Below the pieces are notes generated by a model. It saw only the letters and a list, made by a program, of their open reading frames with translations, made no database searches and was not told the origin of the DNA. A stretch of DNA of 27,925 bases from Pseudomonadota bacterium. Its GTDB lineage: Bacteria; Pseudomonadota; Gammaproteobacteria; Burkholderiales; Gallionellaceae. The stretch is taken from contig JAJZEQ010000171.1 of the NCBI GenBank assembly GCA_021851345.1, positions 1-27,925 on the forward strand, in the 5' to 3' direction. Below, piece by piece: positions 2,970 through 21,104 of this stretch. Position numbers and translations under genes: made by a program. Each line of letters opens with the position of its first letter. Within the stretch, counting starts at the first letter, position 1.

Positions 2970-4253
2970 TCACTTAATGCGTTGTGCGATGCGCTGCATC
3001 AATTGACGTGCCAGCGTCAACTTGTCTGCGCGCGGCAGTGTTTGCCTGCCGCTGTCATCGAATAAAACCAGTTCGTTATCGTCGCTGCCGACAGCCCGCT
3101 GCACCAGATTGCCCACCAGCAGCGGCAATTTTTTCTCACGGCGTTTTTTCTCGGAATTTTCCGCAAGATTTTCGCTTTCGGCTGCAAAACCCACGCAGAA
3201 CGGGGGATTGGTCAGATTGGCGACGTACGCAAGAATATCCGGGTTGGGAACCAGTTCCAGGGTGAGGTTGGCAGCGCTCTTCTTTATTTTTTGCGCACTG
3301 GCTTGCGCGACGCGGTAATCGGCCACCGCCGCCACGCCGATAAAAATATCGCAATTGCCGACGTGCTGCTTTACAGCTTCGAACATCTGCTCTGCACTCT
3401 GTACATCCACACTTTGCACCCCTTGGGGTTTGGCAAGCGCGGTCGGCCCGGATACCAGCACTACTTTCGCACCCAGTTCCTGCGCGGCTTGTGCGATTGC
3501 ATAGCCCATTTTGCCGGAGCTTCGATTGGTGATGCCGCGCACGGTATCTATCGCCTCGTAGGTGGGGCCCGCCGTCACCAGGATATTTTTTCCGGACAAT
3601 TTCCTGGCCAACGACTGCACTTGCCCCACATCCCTCCGGGGGAGTGATGAAGCGACCTCGATCGATGTATTACCGGTCTGCAAAAATGCAGCAATTTCCT
3701 GCGCCAACTGGACAGCCTCCAGCATCCGCCCCATGCCTTCTTCCCCGCACGCTTGCACCCCGCTATCCGGTCCCAGCACCTGTACGCCATCGGCAATCAG
3801 TTGCTTGACGTTGCGTTGCATAGCGGCATTCAGCCACATCTCGCGATTCATCGCCGGAGCGATGATCAGCGGACACACACGCGCCAGACATAGCGTGGAG
3901 AGCAGATCGTCCGCCAGACCATGCGCAAGTTTGGCAATAAAATCTGCACTCGCCGGCGCAATCAGGATCGCATCGGCGGCACGACTCAGCTCGATATGCG
4001 CCATGTTGTTCGGCACGCTGGCGTCCCACTGGTCGGTGTACACGCGCCTGCCGGACAGGCCCTGCATCGTGATTGGCGTGATGAAATGACAAGCAGCCTC
4101 GGTCATCACGACCTGCACCCCGATGCCCTGCTTCACCAGCAGACGCAGCAACTCCGCAGCCTTGTAGGCCGCAATGCCGCCGCTGACACCCAGGATGATC
4201 CGGGTCGGCGGTGAATCGGGATTTGTGGTTTCTTGTTCCATCATGTCGCGCAT
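2970..4253 (-). CDS. coaBC: Bifunctional phosphopantothenoylcysteine decarboxylase / phosphopantothenate-cysteine ligase
   Basis: 427-aa ORF. It has an N-terminal flavoprotein domain ([28 protein letters not shown]) and a C-terminal CoaB domain ([36 protein letters not shown]). The coaBC-dut arrangement is the conserved one. The exact start among the N-terminal Met codons is uncertain. Confidence 0.95.
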
Positions 4254-4334
4254 CTTACAAGAAAAGGCCCATGCTTAACCACAGCGCTAGTTCCACCCGG
4301 AATTTGGCGCCGCCCGGCATATGGCCTGGTTCAC

Positions 4335-4368
4335 AAAATGAAAATGGGCCGGCATGCATTGCCGACCC
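4335..4368 (-). terminator. Intrinsic terminator (minus strand) between the sORF and coaBC
   Basis: The minus strand reads GGGTCGGCA-atgca-TGCCGGCCC followed by ATTTTCATTTT. This is a 9-bp stem with one mismatch plus a T-rich tail. Confidence 0.5.
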
Positions 4369-4511
4369 ATTGAAAGGCGGATTCCACCGGCCGGACAAGC
4401 TTGCGGCCAGCTCGATCTTACCAAGTTAACCCTAAATGTTCAGGATAGTTATAGTTCACCCGGATTACCGATCAGTACGCTTCGGGAACTCCGGGGCTTG
4501 TGCCGAACCGG

Positions 4512-4607
4512 CTATTTCTTCTTCCTGTCCCATCCTGCATCATCAGTAATAATGATAATACCTGTAAGGACAAACAAACCAATAAAGAATATCGCTACGT
4601 CCAACAT
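4512..4607 (-). CDS. Candidate 31-aa single-pass membrane peptide (sORF below the ORF-track length cutoff)
   Basis: The minus strand reads GAGGAGaaattatATG TTG GAC ... AAA TAG, giving MLDVAIFFIGLFVLTGIIIITDDAGWDRKKK. It has a strong SD at ideal spacing, one hydrophobic helix, a basic tail, and the terminator 4335-4368 downstream. Confidence 0.45.
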   Translation of the reverse strand: MLDVAIFFIGLFVLTGIIIITDDAGWDRKKK

Positions 4608-4966
4608 ATAATTTCTCCTCGATAGTAAATTGACAAGAACACCCCGGACAGCCCAACGTCACATCAACTTCCACAACCCGGCAGAGCAAATGCTACAGTA
4701 CTATTGGTTTCACCAGCCGACAAGCTACGGAAGCGACATAACCTTTCCAAACTGGGGATATTATAACGCTCATTAAAAGTTTTGGTAATTTTTTCATCTG
4801 TAGTCGACAAGAGTATTCGGGAATACGGCCTATTGTTTTTCACCGCAAAAGTACCCACACTGCCTGCCCTCGATGGTCGCAATTGCATTGAAAAATACCT
4901 GGAGGCACGTGAAGTTCCGAAAAATCCAGCGCATGGCTTGCTGCTCACCCGACCGGGACTGATATT

Positions 4967-5812
4967 TTGATTCCTTCATCATCACCAAATAAAGTAGTTT
5001 CCAGCCCCGCAGAATTAAGACTCGCGGCACTTTTCTGGCTTGCCGAAAGTGATCCGGCCCGCAAAGCCGCAGGCGTGCGCCTGCTGGCAAGGGCATGGCT
5101 GTCGGGCGAGATCGGGCTGGACACCGATGCGGCGCCGACAGCCCGGCAAACCATACCCGGCCATCCGGTCAAACCCGAACTGGTCGCGCCGCGCCTGGTC
5201 AAGCGCCGCTCGATGATCACGCCGGAAGGCCGCGCCATCCTGATCCACGCGCTGGCGCATATCGAGTTCAATGCGATCAACCTGGCGCTGGACGCGATCT
5301 GGCGCTTCGCCGGCATGCCGCGTGAGTATTACGCCGACTGGCTGCACGTGGCGGACGAAGAAGCGCTGCATTTTTCGCTGCTGGCCGGACACCTGCAAAC
5401 CCAGGGTTACGCGTACGGAGACTTTCCCGCGCACAGCAGCCTGTGGGAGATGGCGGCCAAAACCCAGCACGACATCCTAGCGCGCATCGCGCTGGTGCCG
5501 CGCACGATGGAAGCACGCGGACTGGATGCCACGCCGCAGGTGCGTGCCAAATTCGCGCAGGCCGGAGACATGGCCGCAGCCGCGATACTGGATATTATCT
5601 TAAGCGATGAGATCGGCCATGTCGCGACCGGCAACCGCTGGTACAACTGGCTGTGCGAGCAACGCGGCCTCGAGCCGGTCGCCACCTACGCCCGCCTCGC
5701 AGCCGAATACCGGGCGCCGGTCCTGCGCGGGCCGTTCAATCTGCCAGCACGGCGGGCGGCCGGATTCAGCGAATTGGAGCTGGCTGCGTTAGCCGATAGC
5801 TCTGGTCACTAA
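4967..5812 (+). CDS. DUF455-family ferritin-like (di-iron) protein
   Basis: 281-aa ORF with the motifs typical of DUF455 proteins (ALAHIEFNAINLALD, DEEALHF, EARGLD, ILSDEIGHVATGNRWY). The only upstream in-frame start is TTG at 4967, so the start is uncertain. Confidence 0.8.
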   Translation: MIPSSSPNKVVSSPAELRLAALFWLAESDPARKAAGVRLLARAWLSGEIGLDTDAAPTARQTIPGHPVKPELVAPRLVKRRSMITPEGRAILIHALAHIEFNAINLALDAIWRFAGMPREYYADWLHVADEEALHFSLLAGHLQTQGYAYGDFPAHSSLWEMAAKTQHDILARIALVPRTMEARGLDATPQVRAKFAQAGDMAAAAILDIILSDEIGHVATGNRWYNWLCEQRGLEPVATYARLAAEYRAPVLRGPFNLPARRAAGFSELELAALADSSGH

Positions 5813-6161
5813 ATGGGACTCAAATGCCGAAGCTTCACTTTCCATTCCAACTTGCAAAAACAATACAACCCGGGTTTATTTGGCTCAAGCAGCGCCAAGC
5901 GCTACCTATCGAAATGAACTTGTGACGATTGTTAATGTCTCCGTCTCGGATCCAAGTCCGTGTATCCGCAACGGGTAGTATCCATAGCGCGGCTATGGAG
6001 AAGAAGAGCATGCTATACGGCTAAGCCCATAGCCAAAGTATCAAGATTTTTAAAAACGGGCGGAATGCCGGCAGTTCAAAACTTTAATGTCGAACGATTT
6101 AAGGGGTTTTCGCATAAGAAGCGGATAGTAAATATTCTGGGCATAGGGCGGGCTGCAGTCC

Positions 6162-7907
6162 ATGAACTCAACAAGTAGAAAGAGGGTGAAAAATTGCCCG
6201 GCATTCTTCATATCCATGTTCATTTTCATGAGCGATGGCTATGCCGCCGTGGACACAACAGATAGCGAAGAACTGCGCAACCGCGCCATACAGCAAGCGC
6301 AGGAACGAGAGCGCCAGCAACAAGCTCCCAACGTTAATCTTCAAGGCGTAGTCCCGGAAGCACAACCATTTCAACTCCCTGCAGCAGAAACTCCCTGTTT
6401 TACCGTCAACACATTTGTTCTGGAACTACCCAGCCAGCTTTCTCCTGCAGCGCAGCGCTATGGTGCCAGCACATCCTTGCTGGACCCTTTTCATTTTGCG
6501 CAAAAATTTCTTGATCAATACAAAGGGAAATGTATCGGGCGCGAAGGCATCAATATACTCGTCAAGGGTGTTACTACGAAGATACTGGAACGCGGCTATT
6601 CCACCACGCGGGTGGCTATTCCTGAACAGGACATGTTGAGCGGCACACTCAAATTAACCCTGATTCCCGGCATCATTCATGAACTGCGGTTTGCCGATGC
6701 CGGTACTGCCGGAACCTGGAAGAACGCATTTCCGACTTCCGCCGGGAAACTGCTCAACCTGCGCGACCTCGAGCAGGGACTGGAACAGATGAAACGTGTA
6801 ACCAGCCAGGATGTGAGCATGCAGATCGTCCCCGCCGGAAACCTGGGCGAAAGTGACGTCATCATCTCGGTCAGGCGCAGCAAGCCCTGGAATGCCACCA
6901 TCAATCTGGATGACAGCGGTATCAAGGCAACCGGCAAGACCCAGGCCGGACTACAGGCCGGGTGGGACAACCTGCTCGGCATAAACGACCTGTTCAATAT
7001 CGGCACCAGCACCGATGCTGATCGCAACAACTACATGCGCGGAACATCGGGCAACAATTTTTCCTATTCAGTACCTTTCGGTTATTGGACGAGCTCGATA
7101 TCGGCGAATGAATTTGCCTATCACCAGCGCATCATGGGGATTGCGCAGAGCTTTGTCTCCAGCGGCAAAATGCAGAACCTTGATGCGAAAGTCAGCTACC
7201 TCTTCTATCGCGATCAATTCAGTAAAAGCAGCCTGCAATTCCGCACAGGAAGATATTTCAGCCATTCCTACATCGACGATACCGAAGTCTTGGTTCAAAA
7301 GCGCGATACCACTTTCGCCGAGATTGCGCTGATCCACAAACACTACATCGGACAGGCGCAGATCGATGCCACACTCGCCTGCCGCAAGGGGACACCCTGG
7401 TTCGGCGCGCAATCAGATCCCGCGAACTTGCCCGGTGCCAGTCCGCGATACAACTACACGCTCGAAACCCTGGATGCCATGCTGACCATGCCCTTCCAAC
7501 TGAATGAACGTCAGCTTAGCTACAGCGCCACCTTCCGCGCGCAAAATACCAACACCGCGCTCTATGCCGAAAACTGGTTTTCTATCGGCAACCGCTGGAC
7601 GGTGCGCGGCTTTGATGGTGAGTATCCGATGAGCGCCGAAAAGGGATTCTTTCTGCGCAACGAGATCGGCATTCCCATTGCCGACACCGCGCAATCCGCT
7701 TATGTGGGGCTCGATTTCGGTGCGGTGTATGGCAACAACACCGCCACACTGCTTGGCAACAAATTGGCCGGCTTAGTGGGCGGGCTCAGGGGTAACCTGG
7801 TGCAGGGCATGATGTATGAAGTGTTCGCCGGATTTTCGCTGTACAAACCAGAATACTACCCTACCAATGTACCCGCGGCAGGATTCAGTCTGATGTATCA
7901 AATGTAA
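6162..7907 (+). CDS. cdiB: ShlB/FhaC/HecB-family outer-membrane transporter (TpsB/CdiB) of a two-partner secretion system
   Basis: 581-aa ORF with a signal peptide and a POTRA-like region (GREGINILVKGVTTKILERGYSTTRVAIPEQDMLSGTLKLTLIPG). It has a beta-barrel C-terminus with the conserved RVRGF-type block (NRWTVRGFDGE) and ends in an aromatic-rich strand. It sits directly upstream of the TpsA gene. Confidence 0.9.
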   Translation: MNSTSRKRVKNCPAFFISMFIFMSDGYAAVDTTDSEELRNRAIQQAQERERQQQAPNVNLQGVVPEAQPFQLPAAETPCFTVNTFVLELPSQLSPAAQRYGASTSLLDPFHFAQKFLDQYKGKCIGREGINILVKGVTTKILERGYSTTRVAIPEQDMLSGTLKLTLIPGIIHELRFADAGTAGTWKNAFPTSAGKLLNLRDLEQGLEQMKRVTSQDVSMQIVPAGNLGESDVIISVRRSKPWNATINLDDSGIKATGKTQAGLQAGWDNLLGINDLFNIGTSTDADRNNYMRGTSGNNFSYSVPFGYWTSSISANEFAYHQRIMGIAQSFVSSGKMQNLDAKVSYLFYRDQFSKSSLQFRTGRYFSHSYIDDTEVLVQKRDTTFAEIALIHKHYIGQAQIDATLACRKGTPWFGAQSDPANLPGASPRYNYTLETLDAMLTMPFQLNERQLSYSATFRAQNTNTALYAENWFSIGNRWTVRGFDGEYPMSAEKGFFLRNEIGIPIADTAQSAYVGLDFGAVYGNNTATLLGNKLAGLVGGLRGNLVQGMMYEVFAGFSLYKPEYYPTNVPAAGFSLMYQM

Positions 7908-7956
7908 TAAAACGAATAATCAAACTAACAGCGGGCTGCAATCTGAAAGGCTCATC

Positions 7957-10900
7957 ATGTGCACACAAAAACAGGTGAACGATGAACAGTATCAGTATGG
8001 CAACACTCAGCTTCGGCAGTCGCCACTGCGCCCCTCGATTGCCTGGCTCACCCTTATTGCATATATCGGTCAGCCGCTGATCGTCACTGCACAGGTCATT
8101 GCAAACCAGGCAGCCGCGCCGAACAAGCGCCCCCTCATCGATACCACGGCCAACGGCATACCTTTGGTACAGATCGCCACGCCCAACGCAGCAGGTGTCT
8201 CGCAAAACCAATATACCCAATTCAACGTCGATCCTGCCGGGTTGATACTCAACAACAGCCAGTCCACCGTTCTCACCCGGCAAGCAGGCTACGTTGCAGG
8301 CAACCAGAACCTGGCCAATGGCGCTGCCAGCGTCATCCTGAATGAAGTGACCAGCACCAGCCGCAGTCAATTGAACGGCTACATCGAAGTGGCCGGGCAA
8401 CAAGCCCAGGTCATCGTTGCCAACCCTAACGGCATCACCTGTAACGGCTGCGGCTTCATCAACACCAGCCGTGGCGTGCTCACCACCGGCACTCCCGTCA
8501 TCGGGACTAGCGGCAGTCTGGATGCACTCCGCGTGACGGGCGGAGACATCCAGATCGGCACGGCGGGATTGAATGCCGGCAACATCGGCCAGCTCGACCT
8601 TATTGCCCGCAGCGTCCAGGTCAACGGCCAACTCTGGGCGGGCAACCTCAACGTCATTACCGGCGCCAACCTCGTCAACTACAACACACTGGGTGTACAG
8701 ATCATTGCAGGGGATGCAAACAAACCTACCGTCGGCATCGACGTTGCCTTGTTAGGCGGCATGTATGCCAACAAGATTCGCTTGGTCGGTACCGAAGCCG
8801 GGGTCGGCGTAAACAGCCTGGGCAATCTCTCGGCGCAGGCAGGCGATTTCACTTTGGACAATCAGGGCCAGATCACGTTGGGTGGCAGCACATCTGCCAG
8901 TGGTAACGTAGGTATCAACAGCAACACCGGCATTACCAACAGCGGAACCCTCTACAGTCAGCAAGCGGCACAGCTCACCACGACAGGTGACATCAACAAC
9001 ACCGGTATTCTGTCTGCACAGGGCAATCTTAACCTGAATGCGACGAACATCAACTCGACCGGAATTCTGGGGGCGGGGATTGCAGCCAACGGAGCGGCTA
9101 CTCAAAACGGTACTCTGACTCTAACTGCTGCGAACAGAATCGATGCCACCGGACAAAATTTCGCGGGAGGTAATTTTAGCTTGGTGGGAGCTGCCGTGAA
9201 TCTGGCTCATAGCCAAACCACGATAGGAGGATCTGCTGCACTGACCGCAACTACCGGTGACATAGTGAATACCGGAGGGGTGTTCCAGTCGCAAGGAGGG
9301 CTTGTATTAAATGCAACTGGCACTGTTAATAACGACAACGGCATTCTGGTCGGTGGCAGTTTGACTGCCAATGCAGCCGGTCTGAGCAACGCACAAGGTG
9401 TGCTCATTGCCAACACTGGCAACCTCTTGTTGAACATCACAGGCACATTGAATAACACGGGCGGTACGCTTGCCAGTGCGCTTGACACGAACTTGACTGC
9501 AAATTCCGTCAACGGGAGCGGAAAAATCATTGCCGGACGTGATGCCAGCCTGAACATGCAGGGGAATTACACCAATGCGACAGGCAATGTCATTCAAGCC
9601 AACCGGAACCTGGCAATTACTGCCTCCGGTACCTTCACCAATCAATCCACTATAGAGGCGATTGGCAATTTGACACTAACAGCGAACAGTCTCGACAATC
9701 AATCTGCCGCCATCATCAACTCGGCGAATACCACACTTAACAGCAATATCGGCAGCATCACCAATGCCGGACGGATCGAAGGTAATGCCATTGCCATTAC
9801 CAGCAATGCTTTTTCCAATACCGGAGCGGTTATCGGCGACAACATCATCTTGCGCGCCAATTCACTTACCAACCTCAATGCAAGTGCGATCATCGCGGGC
9901 ACGCAGAGTGTCAACCTTATCGTTCAGAACACACTCCTTAATCAGGGCGGTGCGACCATCTATAGTTTGGGCGATGTCAACATCGGTGCGAATCTGGCAG
10001 TTGATTCGAATGGTTACCTGACCGGCAATGCAGCCAATGTTACAAACTCGTCGGCGATCATCGAGGCGGGTGGCAATCTGCGCATCGGGGCAACTGCACT
10101 TGTCAATCAACGCACCGTAGTAGGTTTGCAGTGGGGGCCGGAGGTTTTGGGAACTTATGTTGCTGGTAATCCCCGATATACCCCAAGTTATTCCGATGAA
10201 CAATTCACGTCGACTACGACAGCGGCAGGTCAGCTGCTGTCCGGCGCGAGCATGTGGCTTGGAGGTGGGACGGTTACCAACAACTACAGCACTATCTCAG
10301 CGGCCAATACACTGGTTTCCAATGCTGTGCTGACCAACTCTGGCGCGCCTTTCCGTCAACGGATGACTGTTACGAATGGTACTCAAGACAATTGGGTATA
10401 TGTGCAGACCGGATCGCATTGGACGGTTTCATGTGGATGGACAGGTTGTTGGCCATCTCTTGTCCCAGACTACGGCTGGGTTAATTATCCAATCCCCTAT
10501 GCGCCGGCATCGACCTACACCACGATTACAGGGTCGGATGTGTGGAACAACCGCACTGCGGTGACATCGTCCAACGTATCCAAGTCTGCAGTTGTCAACG
10601 CTGTTGTTCCTGTCGCCAGAGGTGCTACCCTCACGGTGCCCAGCAACGGATTATTCAGCATCCACAGCCAACCGGGCCAGCCGTATCTGGTGGTGACGGA
10701 CCCGCGTTTTACCAACTACGCCAACTTTGTCTCCAGCAACTACATGTTGAGCCGCTTGTCACTGGATCCGCAGCAAATACAAATGCGTTTGGGCGACGGA
10801 TTCTATGAGCAGCAGCAGGTGACACAGCAGATCACCGCCGGCACGGGCCGTATGTATGTTAATGGCTACACCGATGCCCAGTCGCAATTCATTGCGCTGA

Positions 10901-13900
10901 TGAATTCAGGTGTCGATGCCGCCAAAGATTTTAATCTCACGGTCGGTGTGGCACTGACGACCGCCCAGATCAATTCTCTCAAGCATGACATAGTCTGGAT
11001 GGTGGATCGCAGCGTAACGCTGCCGGACGGCACGACCGGGCACGTTCTGGCTCCGCAGGTCTATTTGTCCAGCGTGCAGGAAGGGGACCTCAAACCGAGC
11101 GGCGCATTGCTTGCGGCGAACGTGATCAATATCAACAGCAATAGCGTCAATAACAGCGGCACCATCCGCGCCGACACAGCGCTCTCCATCAATGTGAACG
11201 ACATTACCAATCAAGGGGGGGCGATCAGCAGCGGTGGCAGCGCCATTCTGGTCGCCAGCAACGACATTCTCAACCTCTCAGGCAACATCAGCGGCGCCAA
11301 TGTCAGCCTGACGGCCGGGCGCGACATTAGCAATGCGCTCACCGGCCAGAATGTTACCCGCACGATCGGCAACGGCGTGGTGAACGGTACTGAGCTTAAC
11401 CCGGCAGCCGGTATCAATGCCACCGGCTCCCTTGGCTTGAATGCGGGGCGAGACATCTCCATTGTCGGAGCCATAATCAACGCGGGGGGTGATGCCACGA
11501 TCAACGCGGGGCGCAACCTTACCGTCGGTGTGCTCACTGCGACCAATTCTGCCACTGCAAATCAATACGCAGCTTACGACACCGGGGTCACGCAACACAC
11601 CAGCAGCATCCAGACGGGGGGTAACCTCAACCTCGCTTCCGGCAACGACATGCACCTCACCTCAGCCGCCCTCAATGTCGGCAAGGATGCCACATTGGTT
11701 GCCGGTGGCGACCTGACGCTCGACGCCAGCAAGAACAGCACCTCTTCCGGTTACAACACGGGTTCTGCGATAGGGCGCTTCAACGATGAAACCGTTCTCG
11801 GCTCCACTCTGAATGCGGGTGGCAACGTTACCCTGGTTGCCACCCGGTTGAATACGGCTGCTACAACTCAGACAAGCGACGGCGGCAGTTCATCCGGGCG
11901 TACCGATGGCAAGGGCAACATCACCTTGCAAAGCACCGACATCACCGCCAAGACTGGCACACTTACGGTCGCTGCGGATGCCAACGTCAACATCGGCACG
12001 ACAGCTGAGAATCACAATGCTTACACCGAGTCGCATGCTACAGGGAGTGGATTGTTCACACACACCACACTTGATGTGCGTAACGAAAGCTGGCGCACCG
12101 ACAACATCGGCAGCAACCTGAGTGCCGACAGCATCAGCATCACCAGTGGCAAGAACATCGGGGTTGTCGGCAGCACAGCCAGCGCGAAACACAACATCAA
12201 CGTTGCTGCGATGGGTGACGTCAATATCTCAGCCGCCACCAACACCTATGGCTCAGACAGCTACAGGCACGAAACCACCACCGGGCTGCAATTCGGCAGT
12301 GGCGGCAACCCCTACAGCATCACCGACAGCGGCCCGGACATCACCACCCAGGCCCGCACCGACGGCACCAAACAAAGCTACAGCCGCAGTAGTTTCACCA
12401 TAACCAGCGACTTGGCTGCCGACTTTGGGCAGCCAAGTCGAATGGCTAGTAGTTCCACCAGCAACAGCGGCCCTTCGACAAGCTCTGGACAGGCCAAGCT
12501 CAACATCATGGCGGGTGGGAATATCATCGCCAGCGGCACCGATCTCGCCGCCAATGCAGGCAACCTGGCACTGACCGCAGGCGGAACCGTCGCCCTGCTT
12601 GCCGGCCAGGACACCCTCAACCAAAGCAGCAGCACCATGATTGTCACCAACCCCAACTTCTTCACCAAGCAGCATCACACGATTACGGACATTTACGCCA
12701 GTCTCGACTACCAGGGCAGCACGGCACAAGGCAACAGTGTCAAAGTCAACAGCGGAGCCGACATCGTCTTGCAAGCATCCCGAGTCACCTCGGGGGCTGG
12801 CGGCATCAACATCGATGCCGGAGGCGACCTCAAACTGCTGGCTGCCGCAAACACCACCAGCAGCACCCATACCGAAACCCTCTCCACCGACGGCTTTGAC
12901 ATCAACTTCGATGGATCGCCTAACGGTTTGGCAACGCGCCGCATCAACAACACTGGCCAGAGCCAGACCCAAACCAACCGGGTCACCACCCTCACCAGCG
13001 CAGGCGACATCACCACCCACTCCGGCGGCGATACCCTGATTGAAGCCGGCAAGCTGAATGCGCAAGGATCATTCGACCTCTCCGCCACCGGATATGCCGC
13101 CACCACCAATGCAGACGGCAGCACCAACGCAGGCCGGGACGGCAAAATCACCTTCGCCGCCGTGAAGGACAGCACCTATACCAGTGTCGCCGACAGCAAC
13201 AACTCCCTGGCCTGGCAAAACAGCAGCGGGGGCGGCGACTACGTCGAAACCCTCAAGCTTGCCAACATCAACGCAGGCAAGGGCCTGAGCTTGAACGCCA
13301 ATGGCGGCATCGTCGTTGATATCCCTGAAGTGCCTGCAACGCCGGCCCCTGCACCGAAGCGGGACGCCAACGGCAAATTCATCCCGGTCGTTCCGTTGAC
13401 ACCGGAACAGCAAGCAGCGCAACGCCAAGCCGACTTTGACCAGGCCATCCAGAACCTGTCCAGCCAGCCCGGCCAGGCATGGATCGGCCAGCTTGCGCAC
13501 GACCCCAAGGTCAAGGTGCAGTGGAATCAGGTGCAGACGGCCGTGCAGCACTGGAACTACAGCCATGATGGCCTGACCCCGGAAGCGGCGGCAGTCATCG
13601 TGATCGTCGTAACGTATTTTAGTGCGGGTACGGCGGGCAGCGCGGCAGGCACCATGACGGGTGCTGCAGCAGGCACCACCACTGCGGCCTCTGCCGCCGT
13701 TTCGGCAGGACTCACCACACTGGCCAGCGAAGCCAGCCTCAGCCTCATCAACAACAAAGGCGACCTCGGCAAAACCCTCAACGATATGGGCAAGAGCGAG
13801 AACGTGCGCAACGTCGTTGCCGCGATGATTACCGCCGGCGTGATACAGGATTATTTGAAAACCTATAACCTGAAAAGTTTTGCTGCGAAAACATTGACCG

Positions 13901-14589
13901 GTTGCGCCACCGGCGATATGACCGGAAGCGGTTGCCAGAAAGGCGCAACCACGGCGGCTATCATGGCGGGATCGACATGGGCAAATTATGCAATGCGTAC
14001 TGCCATGGTCAACGACTCTAATACATTCAAAGGGGTTCAAGATGCCAACGACCCTTCCGGTAAAATTTATAGCAACAACACCGGTGGTGGTAGTGCAGGC
14101 ATTGATGGCTCTAACGATCGGGTTGCGGGGACACGCATCAGCATTAAGGGGCTGCAAGAATTGGGTACCATGACTCCGCCCAGCACTGCCAACCCTCTTT
14201 GGACGTTCGCAGGGAATACCATCAATCCTGATACCAAGAAGCTGTACACCCTAACTGAAGCGCTCACCGCACAAGGCGGCCTTACGGGTGGGTCGCAGGC
14301 ACTCTTACCAACCTTTTTGGGGATGTCCGTAACACCAAATAGCTTCCTGGATAAGCTGCTGGAATCCTTTGCCGGTCCCCATGATTACTTGGGCGGTCGT
14401 ATAGAAGGCGGATATGACAGCCTTGGTAATTGGAAGGTGGCCAGCGACACTGCCGACAACATCAGGGGGTTCATGGCGGGCGTCAATATCCCGCTGGCGA
14501 TGCCGTTGGTGATCCCTACCTTGCTACAGCAGATCAACTTTGACCCGGTAGCGATGAGTAATACTGTGCGTAACGAAACCACCCATTAA
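7957..14589 (+). CDS. cdiA: Filamentous-haemagglutinin-type exoprotein (TpsA/CdiA-like), 2210 aa
   Basis: The N-terminal TPS secretion domain is present ([46 protein letters not shown]). Long Gly/Asn/Thr FHA-type repeats follow, then a conserved central block (LPSNGLF...[12 protein letters not shown]...[10 protein letters not shown]...DIVWMV...LPDG...VLAPQVYLS). A DUF637-like block lies near the C-terminus ([34 protein letters not shown]). The final ~250 aa are unassigned. Confidence 0.9.
   Translation: [2210 protein letters not shown]
12408..12440. repeat. Perfect 13-bp inverted repeat inside the cdiA coding sequence
   Basis: CGACTTGGCTGCC-gactttg-GGCAGCCAAGTCG. It lies in frame, encoding [11 protein letters not shown], and is followed by a Ser-rich tract. 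Confidence 0.7.
13846..14586 (+). other. Compositionally distinct C-terminal module of CdiA (candidate polymorphic toxin region)
   Basis: After ...[10 protein letters not shown], codon usage shifts visibly toward A/T-ending codons (tat ttg aaa acc tat aac ctg aaa agt ttt...). The region is Gly-rich, has no VENN or (E/Q)LYN motif, and ends in a hydrophobic stretch ([19 protein letters not shown]). The boundary is approximate. Confidence 0.5.
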
Positions 14590-14591
14590 AT

Positions 14592-15311
14592 ATGAACCAA
14601 TATCTCATCTGCAAGCATTACCCGGCGTTAGTGGCAGTTTTGCTATTAGTCGCATGCCAAACCATTCCGGAATGGGACCAGGAAGCGATCGACAATCCGG
14701 TTGAAGATGGACGTTGCCCGGATCTGTCTGGTCGGTTTAACTACGAACATCTGGGGGCAAACGATACCAGGGGATTGGACTCGATACTGGATGATGACCT
14801 GCCAGACAATCTACCAGCAGATCGAGCCGTTCCGGCAGATTACAACCCCGGGTCTATCGGATGGAATGGACAGTTCATTCCCATACCTCGCCCCGCCCCC
14901 GGTGATTTTTATGCGGGGCACTATGCATCATCGGCTATCTACAACAAAATTCATAAGGGGAAAATTAATGCCTACCCGGGTACGGTCATCGTCACGCTGA
15001 CGCGTTTAGATCAACTTGGGCGTAAATACCACGTCAGGGTCGACTGGGACATAGAAGGATTGCTGGGTGAATACGATTTCAAATTCGATGATTTGTGGGT
15101 CTGCTCTGGCAATAAGCTCGTCCGGTCGGTGAAGCGTACGCTGTATGAGCGGCCCGACCCTGATGAAATCGACCCCAATGACTATCGCAGGATTTACGTG
15201 CTACCGAACGGCAATATCCGGATAGACAGGAAACACACCTACATTTACATGCGGGATCCAAATAATTTCGTGAGATACTACAAAAGCCGGGTATTTGCAC
15301 GAGTTCCATGA
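14592..15311 (+). CDS. Predicted lipoprotein; candidate immunity (CdiI-position) or BcpO-like accessory protein
   Basis: 239-aa ORF whose ATG lies 2 nt after the cdiA TAA. It has a signal peptide with lipobox LLVAC followed by Q. It is A/T-richer than the backbone and I recognise no family. Confidence 0.75.
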   Translation: MNQYLICKHYPALVAVLLLVACQTIPEWDQEAIDNPVEDGRCPDLSGRFNYEHLGANDTRGLDSILDDDLPDNLPADRAVPADYNPGSIGWNGQFIPIPRPAPGDFYAGHYASSAIYNKIHKGKINAYPGTVIVTLTRLDQLGRKYHVRVDWDIEGLLGEYDFKFDDLWVCSGNKLVRSVKRTLYERPDPDEIDPNDYRRIYVLPNGNIRIDRKHTYIYMRDPNNFVRYYKSRVFARVP

Positions 15312-15505: not shown

Positions 15506-16120
15506 ATGAGAGGTCTTATGGCAAATAGTTGGTTTAAATTGATGTCAGTTAGTTTTTCATTGGCATTAGCTGGCTGTGCCGGTGTTGGTGTAGTTGCTAC
15601 ATCGGACCCAAACGTCAAACTATCTGACGCCACCTACCTATTCGATCAGGAAGACCGACCACTGATTGCGGAACGTCTGATTCGTGAAGCAATTGAAATC
15701 TGTCAAAGCAAATCCGACCAATTGTGCCTTGCTGAAGGATATAGAACTTACGGGTTCTTCTTCCGCTCACCTTCTATCTATGGAAAGTGGGCTAAACATT
15801 ATCAAGAAGAAGGTTTCCTTGATAAATCCGCTACTTTTGAGCATAGATATACCAAGTCGATAGAGTATTTCGAGAAAGCCCATCAAATCGCCACAACCCT
15901 TGAACGCTTTGACATGCTAACCAACGTCAACCTGAATATGGGTTTCACATACGAACTAATGGGTGAGCCGAAACTGGCCTGCCAAGCGTTCGAGGCAAGT
16001 TCCGTTAGTAATCGCGAAAACTTGCGCCGCAATCCCAACGCCAAGCTGTCGCTCCCAAAGGGGTTCGCCTCATATGACGATTACCTCATTCCACAAAAGA
16101 AGCGAGCACATTGCCAATAA
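15506..16120 (+). CDS. Predicted lipoprotein, helical/TPR-like, function unknown (possible orphan immunity-type gene)
   Basis: 204-aa ORF with signal peptide and lipobox LALAGC. An alternative start at ATG 15518 is preceded by GAGAGG. A possible promoter is TTGAAA (15463-15468)-N18-TTACAT (15487-15492). It is visibly A/T-rich relative to neighbours and lies exactly between the two cytochrome-3'-end repeats. Confidence 0.7.
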   Translation: MRGLMANSWFKLMSVSFSLALAGCAGVGVVATSDPNVKLSDATYLFDQEDRPLIAERLIREAIEICQSKSDQLCLAEGYRTYGFFFRSPSIYGKWAKHYQEEGFLDKSATFEHRYTKSIEYFEKAHQIATTLERFDMLTNVNLNMGFTYELMGEPKLACQAFEASSVSNRENLRRNPNAKLSLPKGFASYDDYLIPQKKRAHCQ

Positions 16121-18950: not shown

Positions 18951-19370
18951 CTAGTTTTTGGGTACGGTGAGCAGGTAGGCGAGCACGTCGCCCTTTTCCT
19001 GGGGAGTGCATTCCCGGTCCAGCACATCATTGCAGTTGCGCTTGAACCACTTCGCCACTTTTTTCATGTCGGTGAATCTTTCGGAGTTGGCGGCCGGGGC
19101 AAGCGGCTTGATGAGCTTGTCGGTCTCTGCATGCTTGCCCTGCGCGGCGGGATTGTCGGTATGGCACGAGGAACAACTCAAATCGTGGCTGTGTTTGGTC
19201 TTGAAGAAACTCTCGCCGCGCGCGGCCGAGAACCCCTGGAAGCCCGGCGTGGCTGATGCCTCCGTTTTTAGAACCGCCAGCACTTCGACCGGGGTTTCAG
19301 CGTACGCCGGATTCACCAGCAGCCCGGCAGCCGTAATGAGCAAACCAAATACAGAAATTGCGCGCAACAT
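18951..19370 (-). CDS. DUF1924-type monoheme cytochrome c
   Basis: Only the last 139 codons of the 494-aa track ORF are credible. ATG 19370 is preceded by GGGGAGA. There is a signal peptide (LLVNPAYA) and a single CSSCH motif. The upstream part of the track ORF is an antisense shadow of hrcA. Confidence 0.8.
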   Translation of the reverse strand: MLRAISVFGLLITAAGLLVNPAYAETPVEVLAVLKTEASATPGFQGFSAARGESFFKTKHSHDLSCSSCHTDNPAAQGKHAETDKLIKPLAPAANSERFTDMKKVAKWFKRNCNDVLDRECTPQEKGDVLAYLLTVPKN

Positions 19371-19607
19371 CCATGTCTCCCCAAAAATCGAAGTGACGTT
19401 GAGTGGCTTGTGAATGGGAAGTTCAGCATCAAATATAAACTTATCGCGCACACCATTCAGCAAATTTGTGCTATGCCCTGAACAGCCCCGCCCGGCACCC
19501 ATGTGCCACGGCATAGCCATCCTCCCGGCAACTTCAAGCCCGTATTTGCACGGGAAAGATTCAAGCCGCTTGAGCCTCACCATGCCAATGGTAGAATCCA
19601 CCCCCAT

Positions 19608-20627
19608 ATGCTCAACGACCGCGCACAAATCCTGCTCAGGACACTGGTAGAGCGCTACATCAGCGAAGGCCAGCCGGTCGGTTCGCGCGCCTTGCAACAA
19701 TACTCCGGCCTGGAAGTCAGCCCGGCAACCATACGAAATGTGATGTCCGAGCTGGAAGAACTCGGCCTGGTCAGCAGCCCGCACACTTCCGCAGGCCGCG
19801 TCCCCACCGGCATGGCATACCGCCTGTTCATCGACACGATGCTGGTCACCAAGCCGCTGGACAGCGCGCGCGTGCAGCAGATGGAACACAAGCTGCAGCC
19901 GGACAACCCGTCGCGGTTGATCGCCCAGGCCTCCAACCTGCTTTCCGAACTGACCCACTTCGCAGGCGTGGTCGCCACGGGGAAACGCAGCGCGATCACG
20001 GTGCGCCAGATCGAATTCCTGCGCCTGGGCGAAAAGCGCGTGCTGCTGATCATCGTGATGCCTGACGGCGAGGTGGAGAACCGCGTGCTGTTGCTGGACC
20101 GCGACTACACGCAATCGCAACTCACCGAGGCGGGCAACTTCCTCAACCAGAACTACATCGGCTGCAGCTTCTCGCAGATACGCGACCGGCTGCGCGGCGA
20201 ACTGCAGCAGCTGCACCAGGACATGAGCGCGCTGATGGCTGCGGCACTGGCCGCCGGCGACGCGGCTGAAGCAAAGCAGGCCGGGGACTACGTCATCAGC
20301 GGCGAGCACAACCTGCTGCATGTGGCGGACCTGTCCACCGACATGAACCGCCTGCGCGGCTTGTTCAACCTGTTCGAGAAAAAGACCGAACTGCTGCAGC
20401 TGCTGGATGCCGGCGGCCGCGGGCAGGGTATCCACATCTTCGTCGGCAGCGAATCCGGGCTGGCCTCGCTGGACGAGTGCAGCGTGGTCACCGCGCCCTA
20501 CTCCGCCAACGGAAAAGTCGTGGGCACGCTCGCCGTGGTCGGCCCGAAGCGCATGGACTACGAGCGCGTAATCCCGATCGTCGACATCACCGCGCGCCTG
20601 CTCGGCAATGCGCTTTCGCAGAACTAA
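19608..20627 (+). CDS. hrcA: Heat-inducible transcriptional repressor HrcA
   Basis: From ATG 19608 the product starts [29 protein letters not shown]...[14 protein letters not shown], the canonical HrcA N-terminus. The track start at 19503 adds a non-homologous extension. Confidence 0.92.
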
Positions 20628-20662: not shown

Positions 20663-21104
20663 GTCCACGAAAAACACGAAAGACACGAAAAATATGGATG
20701 GTGAAATCTTGTACAGGGAAGAGTGTTATCAGATACAAGGTGTTGTGTTTGAAGTTTATCGGGAGATAGGAAGTGGTTTTCTGGAGGCTGTCTATCAGGA
20801 ATGTCTGGAAAAAGAATTATCAAAACGAGGAATTCCATTTGTAGCGCACCCAGAACTTGGCCTTTCATACAAAGGTGAACCGTTGCGCCAAACTTATATC
20901 CCCGACTTTATTTGCCACAAAGCCATTATCGTTGAACTTAAGGCGCTTGCTACTACAGGCGAACATAAGGCTCAGGTACTGAACTACCTGAAAGCATCAA
21001 GAATGCGCTTGGGATTGTTAGTCAATTTCGGTTGCTATCCAAAAGCAACAATTGAAAGGATTGTCCTTTAAAGTTTTTTCGTGCTTTTCGTGTCTTTCGT
21101 GGAC
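20663..21104. mobile_element. Possible miniature insertion module: GxxExxY gene bracketed by ~30-nt imperfect inverted repeats
   Basis: The left arm is 20663-20692, GTCCACGAAAAACACGAAAGACACGAAAAA. The reverse complement of the right arm (21074-21104) is GTCCACGAAAGACACGAAAAGCACGAAAAAA. Both are built from CACGAAA units and abut the ORF within 1-3 nt. The module sits between hrcA and hemH. Confidence 0.4.
20694..21071 (+). CDS. GxxExxY protein (PD-(D/E)XK nuclease-like small protein family)
   Basis: 125-aa ORF with the eponymous motif GFLEAVY and a D..(E/V)LK-type core (IPDFICHKAIIVELKA). Length and sequence fit the GxxExxY family as I recall it. Confidence 0.8.
   Translation: MDGEILYREECYQIQGVVFEVYREIGSGFLEAVYQECLEKELSKRGIPFVAHPELGLSYKGEPLRQTYIPDFICHKAIIVELKALATTGEHKAQVLNYLKASRMRLGLLVNFGCYPKATIERIVL

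Follow-up and report, generated by a model that had tools for sequence, protein, structure and literature searches.

A contact-dependent growth inhibition locus in a Gallionellaceae contig pairs an unassignable C-terminal module with a lipoprotein as its predicted immunity partner

The stretch of DNA analysed here, which we call the window, comprises 27,925 nucleotides (nt) from a Pseudomonadota bacterium of the family Gallionellaceae (GenBank assembly GCA_021851345.1, contig JAJZEQ010000171.1, positions 1 to 27,925). It contains three genes that all run in one direction, tpsB (cdiB), tpsA (cdiA) and an open reading frame (ORF) of 239 amino acids (aa), whose features are listed in Table 1. By its architecture this is a contact-dependent growth inhibition (CDI) locus in the gene order of Escherichia coli (B-A-I), and the tip of its exoprotein, the variable end of TpsA, is followed by a gene for a lipoprotein. 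An earlier reading made from the sequence alone had proposed a CDI toxin that acts in the envelope of the target cell and is paired with a lipoprotein immunity protein. The polymorphic junction, the co-mobility of tip and lipoprotein, the orphan arrays, the remnants, the tandem copies and the second lipoprotein family behind more distant tips, all described below, support this proposal, and we argue that the tip is probably an enzyme of the periplasm.

Table 1. Genes and domains of the predicted CDI locus, in positions of the window
Feature	Position (nt)	Strand	Basis or remark
tpsB/cdiB, Omp85-type outer-membrane transporter, 581 aa	6162..7907	+	Pfam POTRA_2, POTRA_3, ShlB (E 2.1e-96)
tpsA/cdiA exoprotein, 2210 aa, carrier and putative toxin tip	7957..14589	+	translation, Pfam
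TPS domain of tpsA, aa 45-308	8089-8880	+	Pfam, E 1.8e-53
Fil_haemagg_2 repeats of tpsA, aa 1584-1703	12706-13065	+	Pfam
DUF637-like pre-toxin region, aa 1914-2004	13696..13968	+	partial Pfam match; ends GC.QGAT..A....W
Predicted C-terminal toxin domain of tpsA, aa 2005-2210	13969..14586	+	member of a large unnamed polymorphic-toxin tip family
Predicted cognate immunity lipoprotein, 239 aa	14592..15311	+	signal peptide, lipobox, position behind tip

The features by which a CDI locus is recognised are found in the window, namely an adjacent TpsB, an exoprotein with a two-partner secretion (TPS) domain and filamentous haemagglutinin (FHA) repeats, a polymorphic C-terminus, and a downstream partner that travels with the tip. 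Membership of the CDI and polymorphic-toxin systems thus rests on architecture, on polymorphism and on orphan modules. The Pfam matches bear out the cdiB-cdiA pair with TPS domain, FHA repeats and DUF637-like block that had been read from the sequence, the last as a partial match (aa 1914-2017, profile positions 1-86 of 168, E 3.9e-14, with the C-terminal 511 aa scanned alone), and the exoprotein also matches NCBIfam TIGR01901. A tpsB gene also lies 5' of tpsA in the related loci L001, L005 and L029. The motifs VENN, ELYN, QLYN, LYN, WVHN and DAMV are all missing from the 2210-aa translation, in agreement with the reported lack of VENN and (E/Q)LYN; the equivalent position is taken by a different junction motif, GC.QGAT..A....W followed by A.MR..M..DS. 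The next gene starts 2 nt after the stop, as had been described: the TAA of tpsA (14587-14589) is followed by 'AT' and then by the ATG at 14592 of a lipoprotein with the lipobox LVAC.

The base composition of tpsA changes towards its 3' end, from a G+C content of 0.62 (0.76 at third codon positions, GC3) in aa 1701-1963 to 0.52-0.53 (GC3 0.58) in aa 1964-2210, and the lipoprotein gene has a G+C content of 0.50. This shift near aa 1964 agrees with the A/T-richer DNA that the sequence-only reading had noticed after AAMITAGVIQ, but the boundary of the module lies further downstream. A contig from a Gallionella metagenome-assembled genome (L011) contains the 3' end of the gene for a homologous exoprotein, which aligns with the TpsA of the window through NWNYS..GLT.EAAAVIVIVV...INNKGD...AAM(I/L)TAGV...GC.QGAT..A....W, that is up to W2008 of the window, and past this residue the similarity between the two collapses. 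Most of the distant members of the tip family begin to match where the profile is equivalent to window aa ~2005 (A.MR..M..DS..F.G). Because of the collapse at W2008 and this start of the profile matches, we place the module boundary at aa 2005-2008 (nt ~13969-13980), about 45 residues beyond the start taken by the sequence-only reading, whose interval 13846-15311 includes part of the DUF637-like block. The variable module delimited by these alignments is aa ~2005-2210 (nt 13969-14586). The tip varies among homologous TpsA proteins, L011 carrying an unrelated one; an 'AGLHDW' motif and a similar tail had made the L011 tip a candidate for distant membership of the family, but it scores below 0 bits against the family profile and was rejected. 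A search for homologues of the pre-toxin region returned only three proteins, and the polymorphism was shown from the fetched loci instead.

Two further observations concern the carrier gene itself. A second stretch of low G+C (0.528, GC3 0.58) lies within tpsA at aa 309-1000 (8881-10956), where identity to the L005 orthologue is also lowest (34-53%, as against 60-90% in most other parts); it is probably a swapped receptor-binding or shaft region. On the 1.29-Mb contig L001, the orthologous tpsA (4113-9998) is split into three called genes of 837, 384 and 358 aa with uncalled gaps between the pieces, while the lipoprotein gene is whole; either the toxin gene is in decay and immunity has been kept, or the assembly contains frameshift errors.

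Direct searches with the tip returned ten relatives, mostly short fragments or standalone ORFs, and P0009 and P0010 carry the same tip domain behind a wholly different pre-toxin region (FDADKVK.EIEAQVTITQEF...). When a profile of these relatives was compared with 1.84 billion representatives, it matched 545 clusters (formed at 50% identity) with E <= 1e-3, 255 with E <= 1e-10 and 61 with E <= 1e-30. The domain ends 0-4 residues from the C-terminus in nearly all of the 107 full-coverage matches examined. Most of the large carriers start with ESPR-type signals or TPS-like N-termini, and TPS and/or haemagglutinin repeats were present in four of the five that were scanned, the fifth (P0210) being an Rhs/SpvB/TcdB protein. 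A scan of one genome per species recovered 17 loci with the tip, from sources that include Methylophilus, Curvibacter, Limnohabitans, Rhodocyclaceae, Stenotrophomonas, Paraburkholderia and three genera of Pasteurellaceae, and the arrangement of tip and small lipoprotein also occurs on megaplasmids of Ralstonia solanacearum (42 records) and on two Enterobacter plasmids.

The surroundings of the tip are those of a polymorphic-toxin module. In L032 and L033, three further modules come after a main CdiA with its partner. The first is a 502-aa orphan that consists of DUF637 and this tip (E 4e-69), with a lipoprotein gene 2 nt 3' of it; the second orphan matches Pfam CDI_toxin_EC869_like and is accompanied by Pfam CdiI; and the third is likewise an orphan module. 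A degraded orphan copy of the tip (P0007) follows a large CdiA together with a PoNi immunity gene and a transposase. In comparison with the window, the pre-toxin region of the carrier in L029 is 45% identical, the tip 66% and the lipoprotein 74%, and the pair has therefore moved between carriers as a unit. Taken together, these comparisons support the view that the tip is a swappable polymorphic-toxin module.

The protein encoded behind the tip begins with MNQYLICKHYPALVAVLLLVAC and continues with Q, the first 22 residues (nt 14592-14657) comprising a signal peptide and lipobox. In 22 homologues the lipobox residue Cys22 never varies, and neither do Cys42 and Cys171; the mature part has no hydrophobic segment (maximum Kyte-Doolittle value 0.52), and the protein has no Pfam or NCBIfam match, even at E <= 10. 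We found 55 homologues with 53-78% identity, and in every context opened the lipoprotein gene lies directly 3' of this tip, of a remnant of the tip, or of its own copy. The full loci L001, L005 and L029 have it directly behind the tip, and the gap of 2 nt is shared by the window, L001, L005, L029 and L032. In L002-L004, the chromosomal site is without tpsBA and retains the last 51-55 residues of the tip, which end 2 nt before a whole lipoprotein gene. In L031 the gene is overlapped by a remnant of 179 aa that matches the tip profile at its C-terminal tail only. In L011 the resident CdiA with its different tip and its own 121-aa lipoprotein is followed by a 38-aa remnant of the window-type tip and three tandem copies of the 239-aa family. 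Remnants and tandem copies of this kind are typical of CDI immunity genes that have been displaced and have accumulated, and the 239-aa lipoprotein is predicted to be the cognate immunity protein of the tip. In Paraburkholderia, a tip that stands alone (about 45-49% identical) overlaps with the next gene, that of a 205-aa lipoprotein, which aligns weakly with the 239-aa family and shares the motif CPD(I/L)SG(K/R)(Y/F) with it. The 121-aa lipoprotein of the other tip in L011 (1-1318) has the lipobox LLGGC, and that tip may be another envelope-directed type of CDI tip.

The association with lipoproteins extends beyond the 239-aa family. Among 16 further loci, the ORF directly after the tip encodes a protein that bears a signal peptide as well as a lipobox-type Cys in 13, and of the three that differ, at least two lie behind truncated tips where the site has been rearranged. 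One of the 13 (L012) is an orthologue of the window locus with the 239-aa family, and the other twelve carry a second lipoprotein family of 122-146 aa, which also follows the tip on the Ralstonia solanacearum megaplasmid and pairs with a larger and more distant tip subfamily. The second family is characterised by the motif HP.P.GA.WVK.G....R..DW..CGG and by invariant C19, C59 and C95, and it has no Pfam or NCBIfam match; when the two families were compared with hhalign, only the signal peptide aligned. Both families have further invariant Cys residues beyond the lipobox, and from their sequences the partners look periplasmic. Since two unrelated partner families are both lipoproteins, it would be the location of the partner, and not a particular fold, that selection requires.

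The tip-lipoprotein pair is easy to overlook, with no Pfam or NCBIfam model and with a truncated start in the Ralstonia record that we inspected. On the megaplasmid of Ralstonia solanacearum RS639 (CP084739.1; L034), the small lipoprotein gene at 4684-5082 is annotated from an internal start (4810-5082) as a 'hypothetical protein'. The true start is at 4684 (MRLKLAMMAVVLITSGC), and the internal call hides both the signal peptide and the lipobox. Mis-annotations such as this one may explain why the pairing has gone unnoticed.

In an alignment of 38 tip sequences that are 24-66% identical to the tip of the window, 14 columns are invariant (S2046, G2058, R2060, G2111, G2112, Q2114, D2132, E2136, G2140, H2142, D2143, Y2153, G2157 and N2158), and R2014, S2021 and N2040 are nearly so. 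An AlphaFold2 model built with 11 sequences was unusable (pLDDT, the predicted local distance difference test, 51.5), whereas the 38 diverse members gave a mean pLDDT of 91.6 and a predicted template-modelling score (pTM) of 0.85 for a single compact alpha+beta domain. In this model, an N-terminal helix and a small alpha+beta part are followed by three long helices, the first of which (model residues 126-145) carries D..E.....HD, and there is no separate entry domain. With 14 mostly polar columns kept invariant across this range of identity, and with a compact predicted fold, the tip looks like an enzyme.

Searches for relatives of the tip outside its own family bear out the description of the module as unassignable. 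Neither Pfam nor NCBIfam gave a match for the tip of the window (the last 247 aa scanned, even at E <= 10), for six distant members or for any of the 38 members of the alignment (A2), and Foldseek found no neighbour of the model in the PDB (best E 1.7) or in BFVD. The tip maps to no known non-toxic C-terminal domain of FHA proteins. Sequence searches of the PDB (phmmer and profile) returned nothing besides a weak, sub-threshold match to the peptidoglycan-binding CW_7 repeats of Cpl-7 (5i8l), in which the whole-sequence E of 0.0013 arises by summing over repeats and the single domains have i-E-values of 8.4 and 63. The secondary structure predicted for that part of the tip does not fit the CW_7 helix bundle, and we take the likeness as chance, or at most as a faint lead. 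Literature searches found no paper on this tip family.

Two properties that the sequence-only reading had picked out fared less well. The last ~250 aa had been described as Gly-rich, but the tip contains 12.1% Gly and the whole of TpsA 11.8%, which is not distinctive. The hydrophobic stretch near the C-terminus (FMAGVNIPLAMPLVIPTLL, aa 2172-2190) is indeed present, with a Kyte-Doolittle value of 1.76 in the window; across the family, however, the same stretch has a median of 1.38 and reaches 1.6 in only 15 of 81 members, and it is therefore not a conserved transmembrane segment. The number of Cys residues is even (0, 2, 4 or 6) in all 81 family tips, and in 72 of these tips a C..C pair follows closely on the G(T)R motif. 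This pattern fits folding in an oxidising compartment.

The chromosomal surroundings of the locus are ordinary. On the 5' side lie dut, coaBC and a DUF455 gene, and on the 3' side genes for dihaem cytochromes, cytochrome b561 and DUF1924, followed by hrcA and hemH; the orthologous locus in two related metagenomic betaproteobacterial contigs (L001 and L005) has the same flanking genes. A second lipoprotein gene lies at 15506-16120 (+; lipobox LAGC, a weak TPR_12 match, G+C 0.454). It is not kept at this position in L001 or L005, and we rejected it as a part of the toxin module. On the opposite strand to hrcA (19503-20627, +), a mechanically called ORF of 494 aa (18951-20435, -) overlaps that gene and matches DUF1924 in its last ~90 residues only; the true DUF1924 gene there probably has ~140 aa, as in L001. 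A gene of the PD-(D/E)XK_3 nuclease family (20694-21071, +) lies between hrcA and hemH, where L001 has no called gene. Upstream of dut and coaBC, positions 1001-2500 form a stretch of low G+C (0.446-0.50) with several ORFs, and the two of these that were scanned (1441-1848 and 1861-2325) had no Pfam match. In L029, a ribonucleotide reductase large-subunit gene with an intein that carries a LAGLIDADG endonuclease (8517-12476) adjoins a ParE/ParD pair and lies just downstream of another copy of the CDI locus.

To account for these observations, we propose that the tip is a periplasm-acting, enzymatic CDI toxin that is neutralised by a periplasmic lipoprotein, and we consider this the probable reading. 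TpsB would export the 2210-aa TpsA as a filament, and when this touches a neighbouring cell, its last ~206 residues (aa 2005-2210) would be transferred into the target periplasm, as is the case for other CdiA proteins (PMC9086364, PMC11630599). There the tip would remain and act as an enzyme on a component of the envelope, with D2132, E2136, H2142 and D2143 on one long helix as candidate catalytic residues and S2046, R2060, Q2114, Y2153 and N2158 as further candidates. The lipoprotein, presumably coupled to tpsA in translation across the gap of 2 nt, would bind and block the tip in the periplasm of the producer and its kin; the Gln at +2 would, by the +2 rule, place it in the outer membrane, facing the periplasm. 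The C-terminal half of a partially exported CdiA waits in the periplasm of the producer (PMC11630599), and a periplasmic antidote would therefore make sense in the producer as well. As to the substrate, our ranking, by analogy with other toxins whose immunity proteins are periplasmic or lipoproteins, begins with peptidoglycan or lipid-linked precursors, followed by the head groups of membrane lipids and then by other envelope targets. It is possible, though we advance this only tentatively, that this tip is the founding member of a new enzyme fold, delivered by CDI and Rhs systems for killing from the periplasm.

Several points weigh against the periplasmic enzyme. The tip subfamily to which the window itself belongs has no Cys in the tip. 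Entry domains that take CdiA C-termini to the cytoplasm may also carry disulfides formed in the periplasm, and even Cys counts would therefore show folding in the periplasm and not necessarily action there. A lipoprotein could in principle intercept a toxin that is bound for the cytoplasm, and the substrate is a guess, because no structural or sequence relative suggests a reaction. One alternative is that the tip has its target in the cytoplasm, nucleotides or nucleic acids for instance, and that the lipoprotein captures it in the periplasm before it is imported; of the CDI toxins that have been characterised, nearly all do work in the cytoplasm, and the Cys pairs are compatible with an entry step that includes folding in the periplasm. 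This is a possible but less economical explanation, and an improbable one, because it would leave the producer unprotected against toxin that reaches its own cytoplasm, and because the tip is one compact domain where a bipartite architecture of entry domain and toxin would be expected. Foldseek found no nuclease, deaminase or ADP-ribosyltransferase fold, and the fact that both of the unrelated partner families are lipoproteins is most easily explained by a periplasmic toxin. An ionophore or pore-former that inserts into the membrane in the manner of the EC93 CdiA-CT, and is blocked by the lipoprotein at the periplasmic face, would also be an envelope-acting toxin. The three long helices predicted for the C-terminal half, the 19-residue hydrophobic stretch of the window tip and the large ionophore family that CDI systems deploy (PMC11630599) speak for it. 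We nevertheless regard it as unlikely, since that stretch is not conserved, and the invariant D, E, H and D on helix 126-145 would be unfavourable in a bilayer. The predicted fold is alpha+beta and differs from an all-alpha bundle of five helices, and a glycine-zipper motif was not noticed; moreover, the known immunity proteins of ionophores are integral to the membrane, and the mature lipoprotein has no hydrophobic segment.

The same comparisons bear on two readings in which the lipoprotein is not an immunity protein at all. The sequence-only reading had offered as its alternative that the lipoprotein is an accessory factor like BcpO, which would serve the secretion or maturation of TpsA. In Burkholderia, full CDI activity does depend on BcpO, an outer-membrane lipoprotein whose gene lies in the CDI loci (PMC3415462, PMC9086364), but it has only ~74 aa, its gene stands behind a distinct bcpI, and the mature sequence hardly differs between alleles (PMC3415462). 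The lipoprotein of the window follows the toxin gene immediately, with no other candidate immunity gene between them, and its family changes with the tip subfamily. It persists with remnants of the tip where tpsB and tpsA are absent (as in L002), it occurs in orphan arrays and tandem copies, and the 239-aa family does not stand behind the CdiA of L011 with its own different tip, which has its own partner. We therefore rejected the accessory role as very improbable. Many TpsA proteins are adhesins, and the tip has no known toxin signature, so that the C-terminus could also be thought of as a non-toxic functional domain or pro-domain of an adhesin of the FhaB/HMW type, with the lipoprotein as an unrelated neighbour. 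This is almost certainly not the case for a domain that is swapped at a fixed junction, is found on Rhs and divergent CdiA carriers and in orphan arrays, and is linked to the lipoprotein in every context examined. The reading that we prefer thus remains a periplasmic enzyme with a periplasmic lipoprotein as its antidote.

If this reading is correct, type Vb CDI systems, so far credited with nucleases and ionophores, would also deploy enzymes that degrade the envelope, and a widespread periplasmic tip family would add a third mode of CDI killing. At least two lipoprotein immunity families would have been recruited independently, in hundreds of proteobacterial lineages that include Ralstonia solanacearum. 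Action in the periplasm would skip the step at an inner-membrane receptor, and hence remove that route to resistance, and a new enzyme fold, possibly with a new envelope target, would join the known antibacterial activities. The tip family is found in culturable bacteria (the megaplasmids of Ralstonia solanacearum and the plasmids of Enterobacter), and the proposal is directly testable.

Among known systems, the locus is closest in plan to the cdiBAI loci of the E. coli type (EC93, EC869, 536), with which it shares the B-A-I order, the TPS domain, the FHA repeats, a DUF637-type pre-toxin region, and a swappable tip followed by a partner gene; its relatives also share orphan arrays, one of them with an EC869-like toxin and CdiI. 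It differs from these loci in that VENN is missing, that the tip is one compact domain with no recognisable entry domain and belongs to a family with no Pfam model or structural relative, and that a 239-aa lipoprotein takes the place of a CdiI of the cytoplasm or inner membrane. The bcpAIOB loci of Burkholderia are likewise TPS-based CDI systems that lack VENN and include a predicted outer-membrane lipoprotein, but their order is A-I-O-B, where the window has B-A-lipoprotein and no Nx(E/Q)LYN motif. BcpO is also independent of the allele, whereas in the window the toxin is followed only by the gene for the much longer lipoprotein, which varies together with the tip.

For the way in which the pair works, the most likely model, by analogy, is the logic of periplasmic effectors and their immunity proteins. 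The Tae/Tsi amidases and Tle/Tli phospholipases of type VI secretion systems (T6SS), TelC/TipC and colicin M/Cmi all place immunity at the periplasm or membrane against a toxin that acts on the envelope (PMC12419801), and the toxins of the last two pairs cleave lipid II. The tip of the window has no sequence or fold likeness to T6SS periplasmic effectors, TelC or colicin M, and it would be delivered by a type Vb exoprotein, unlike the effectors of T6SS and type VII secretion systems and the colicins. Membership of the Lipocone superfamily (TelC, Min-Wnt, CapCone), an idea raised by the study that describes it (PMC12419801), was considered but is not supported, since no Foldseek match in the PDB had an E below 1.7. 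The superfamily has a four-helix core that can be recognised by structure or profile, the structures of TelC, Wnt and SAA have been solved, and the study lists no family borne by type Vb exoproteins (PMC12419801); what Lipocone toxins have in common with the window pair is only the logic of lipoprotein or transmembrane immunity. A survey of polymorphic toxins from 2012 contained a single lipoprotein immunity family, Imm65 (PMC3482391), and identity with Imm65 and its JAB peptidase toxin Tox-JAB-1 was rejected, as neither the tip nor the lipoprotein had a Pfam match at E <= 10.

The CDI toxins characterised so far are either nucleases or pore-formers, which have to cross the inner membrane or enter it (2022 review, PMC9086364). 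The alpha-helical ionophores (PMC11630599) resemble the tip, as we propose it to work, in acting at the envelope and not on nucleic acids, and they too make up a large and polymorphic family whose cognate immunity proteins are diverse. Those toxins fold into all-alpha bundles of five helices with a glycine zipper, have an N-terminal entry domain, and are matched by an integral-membrane CdiI (PMC11630599), whereas the tip described here is predicted to be alpha+beta, has many invariant polar residues, and is paired with lipoproteins, of which the 239-aa one has no transmembrane segment beyond its signal peptide. The folds reported in the 2024 ionophore study (PMC11630599) and the 2025 Lipocone study (PMC12419801) both differ from that of the tip. 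New CDI tips with no assigned function are not rare in themselves; what is new here is the combination of a known delivery system with an uncharacterised, structurally unmatched toxin family and an unusual location of immunity.

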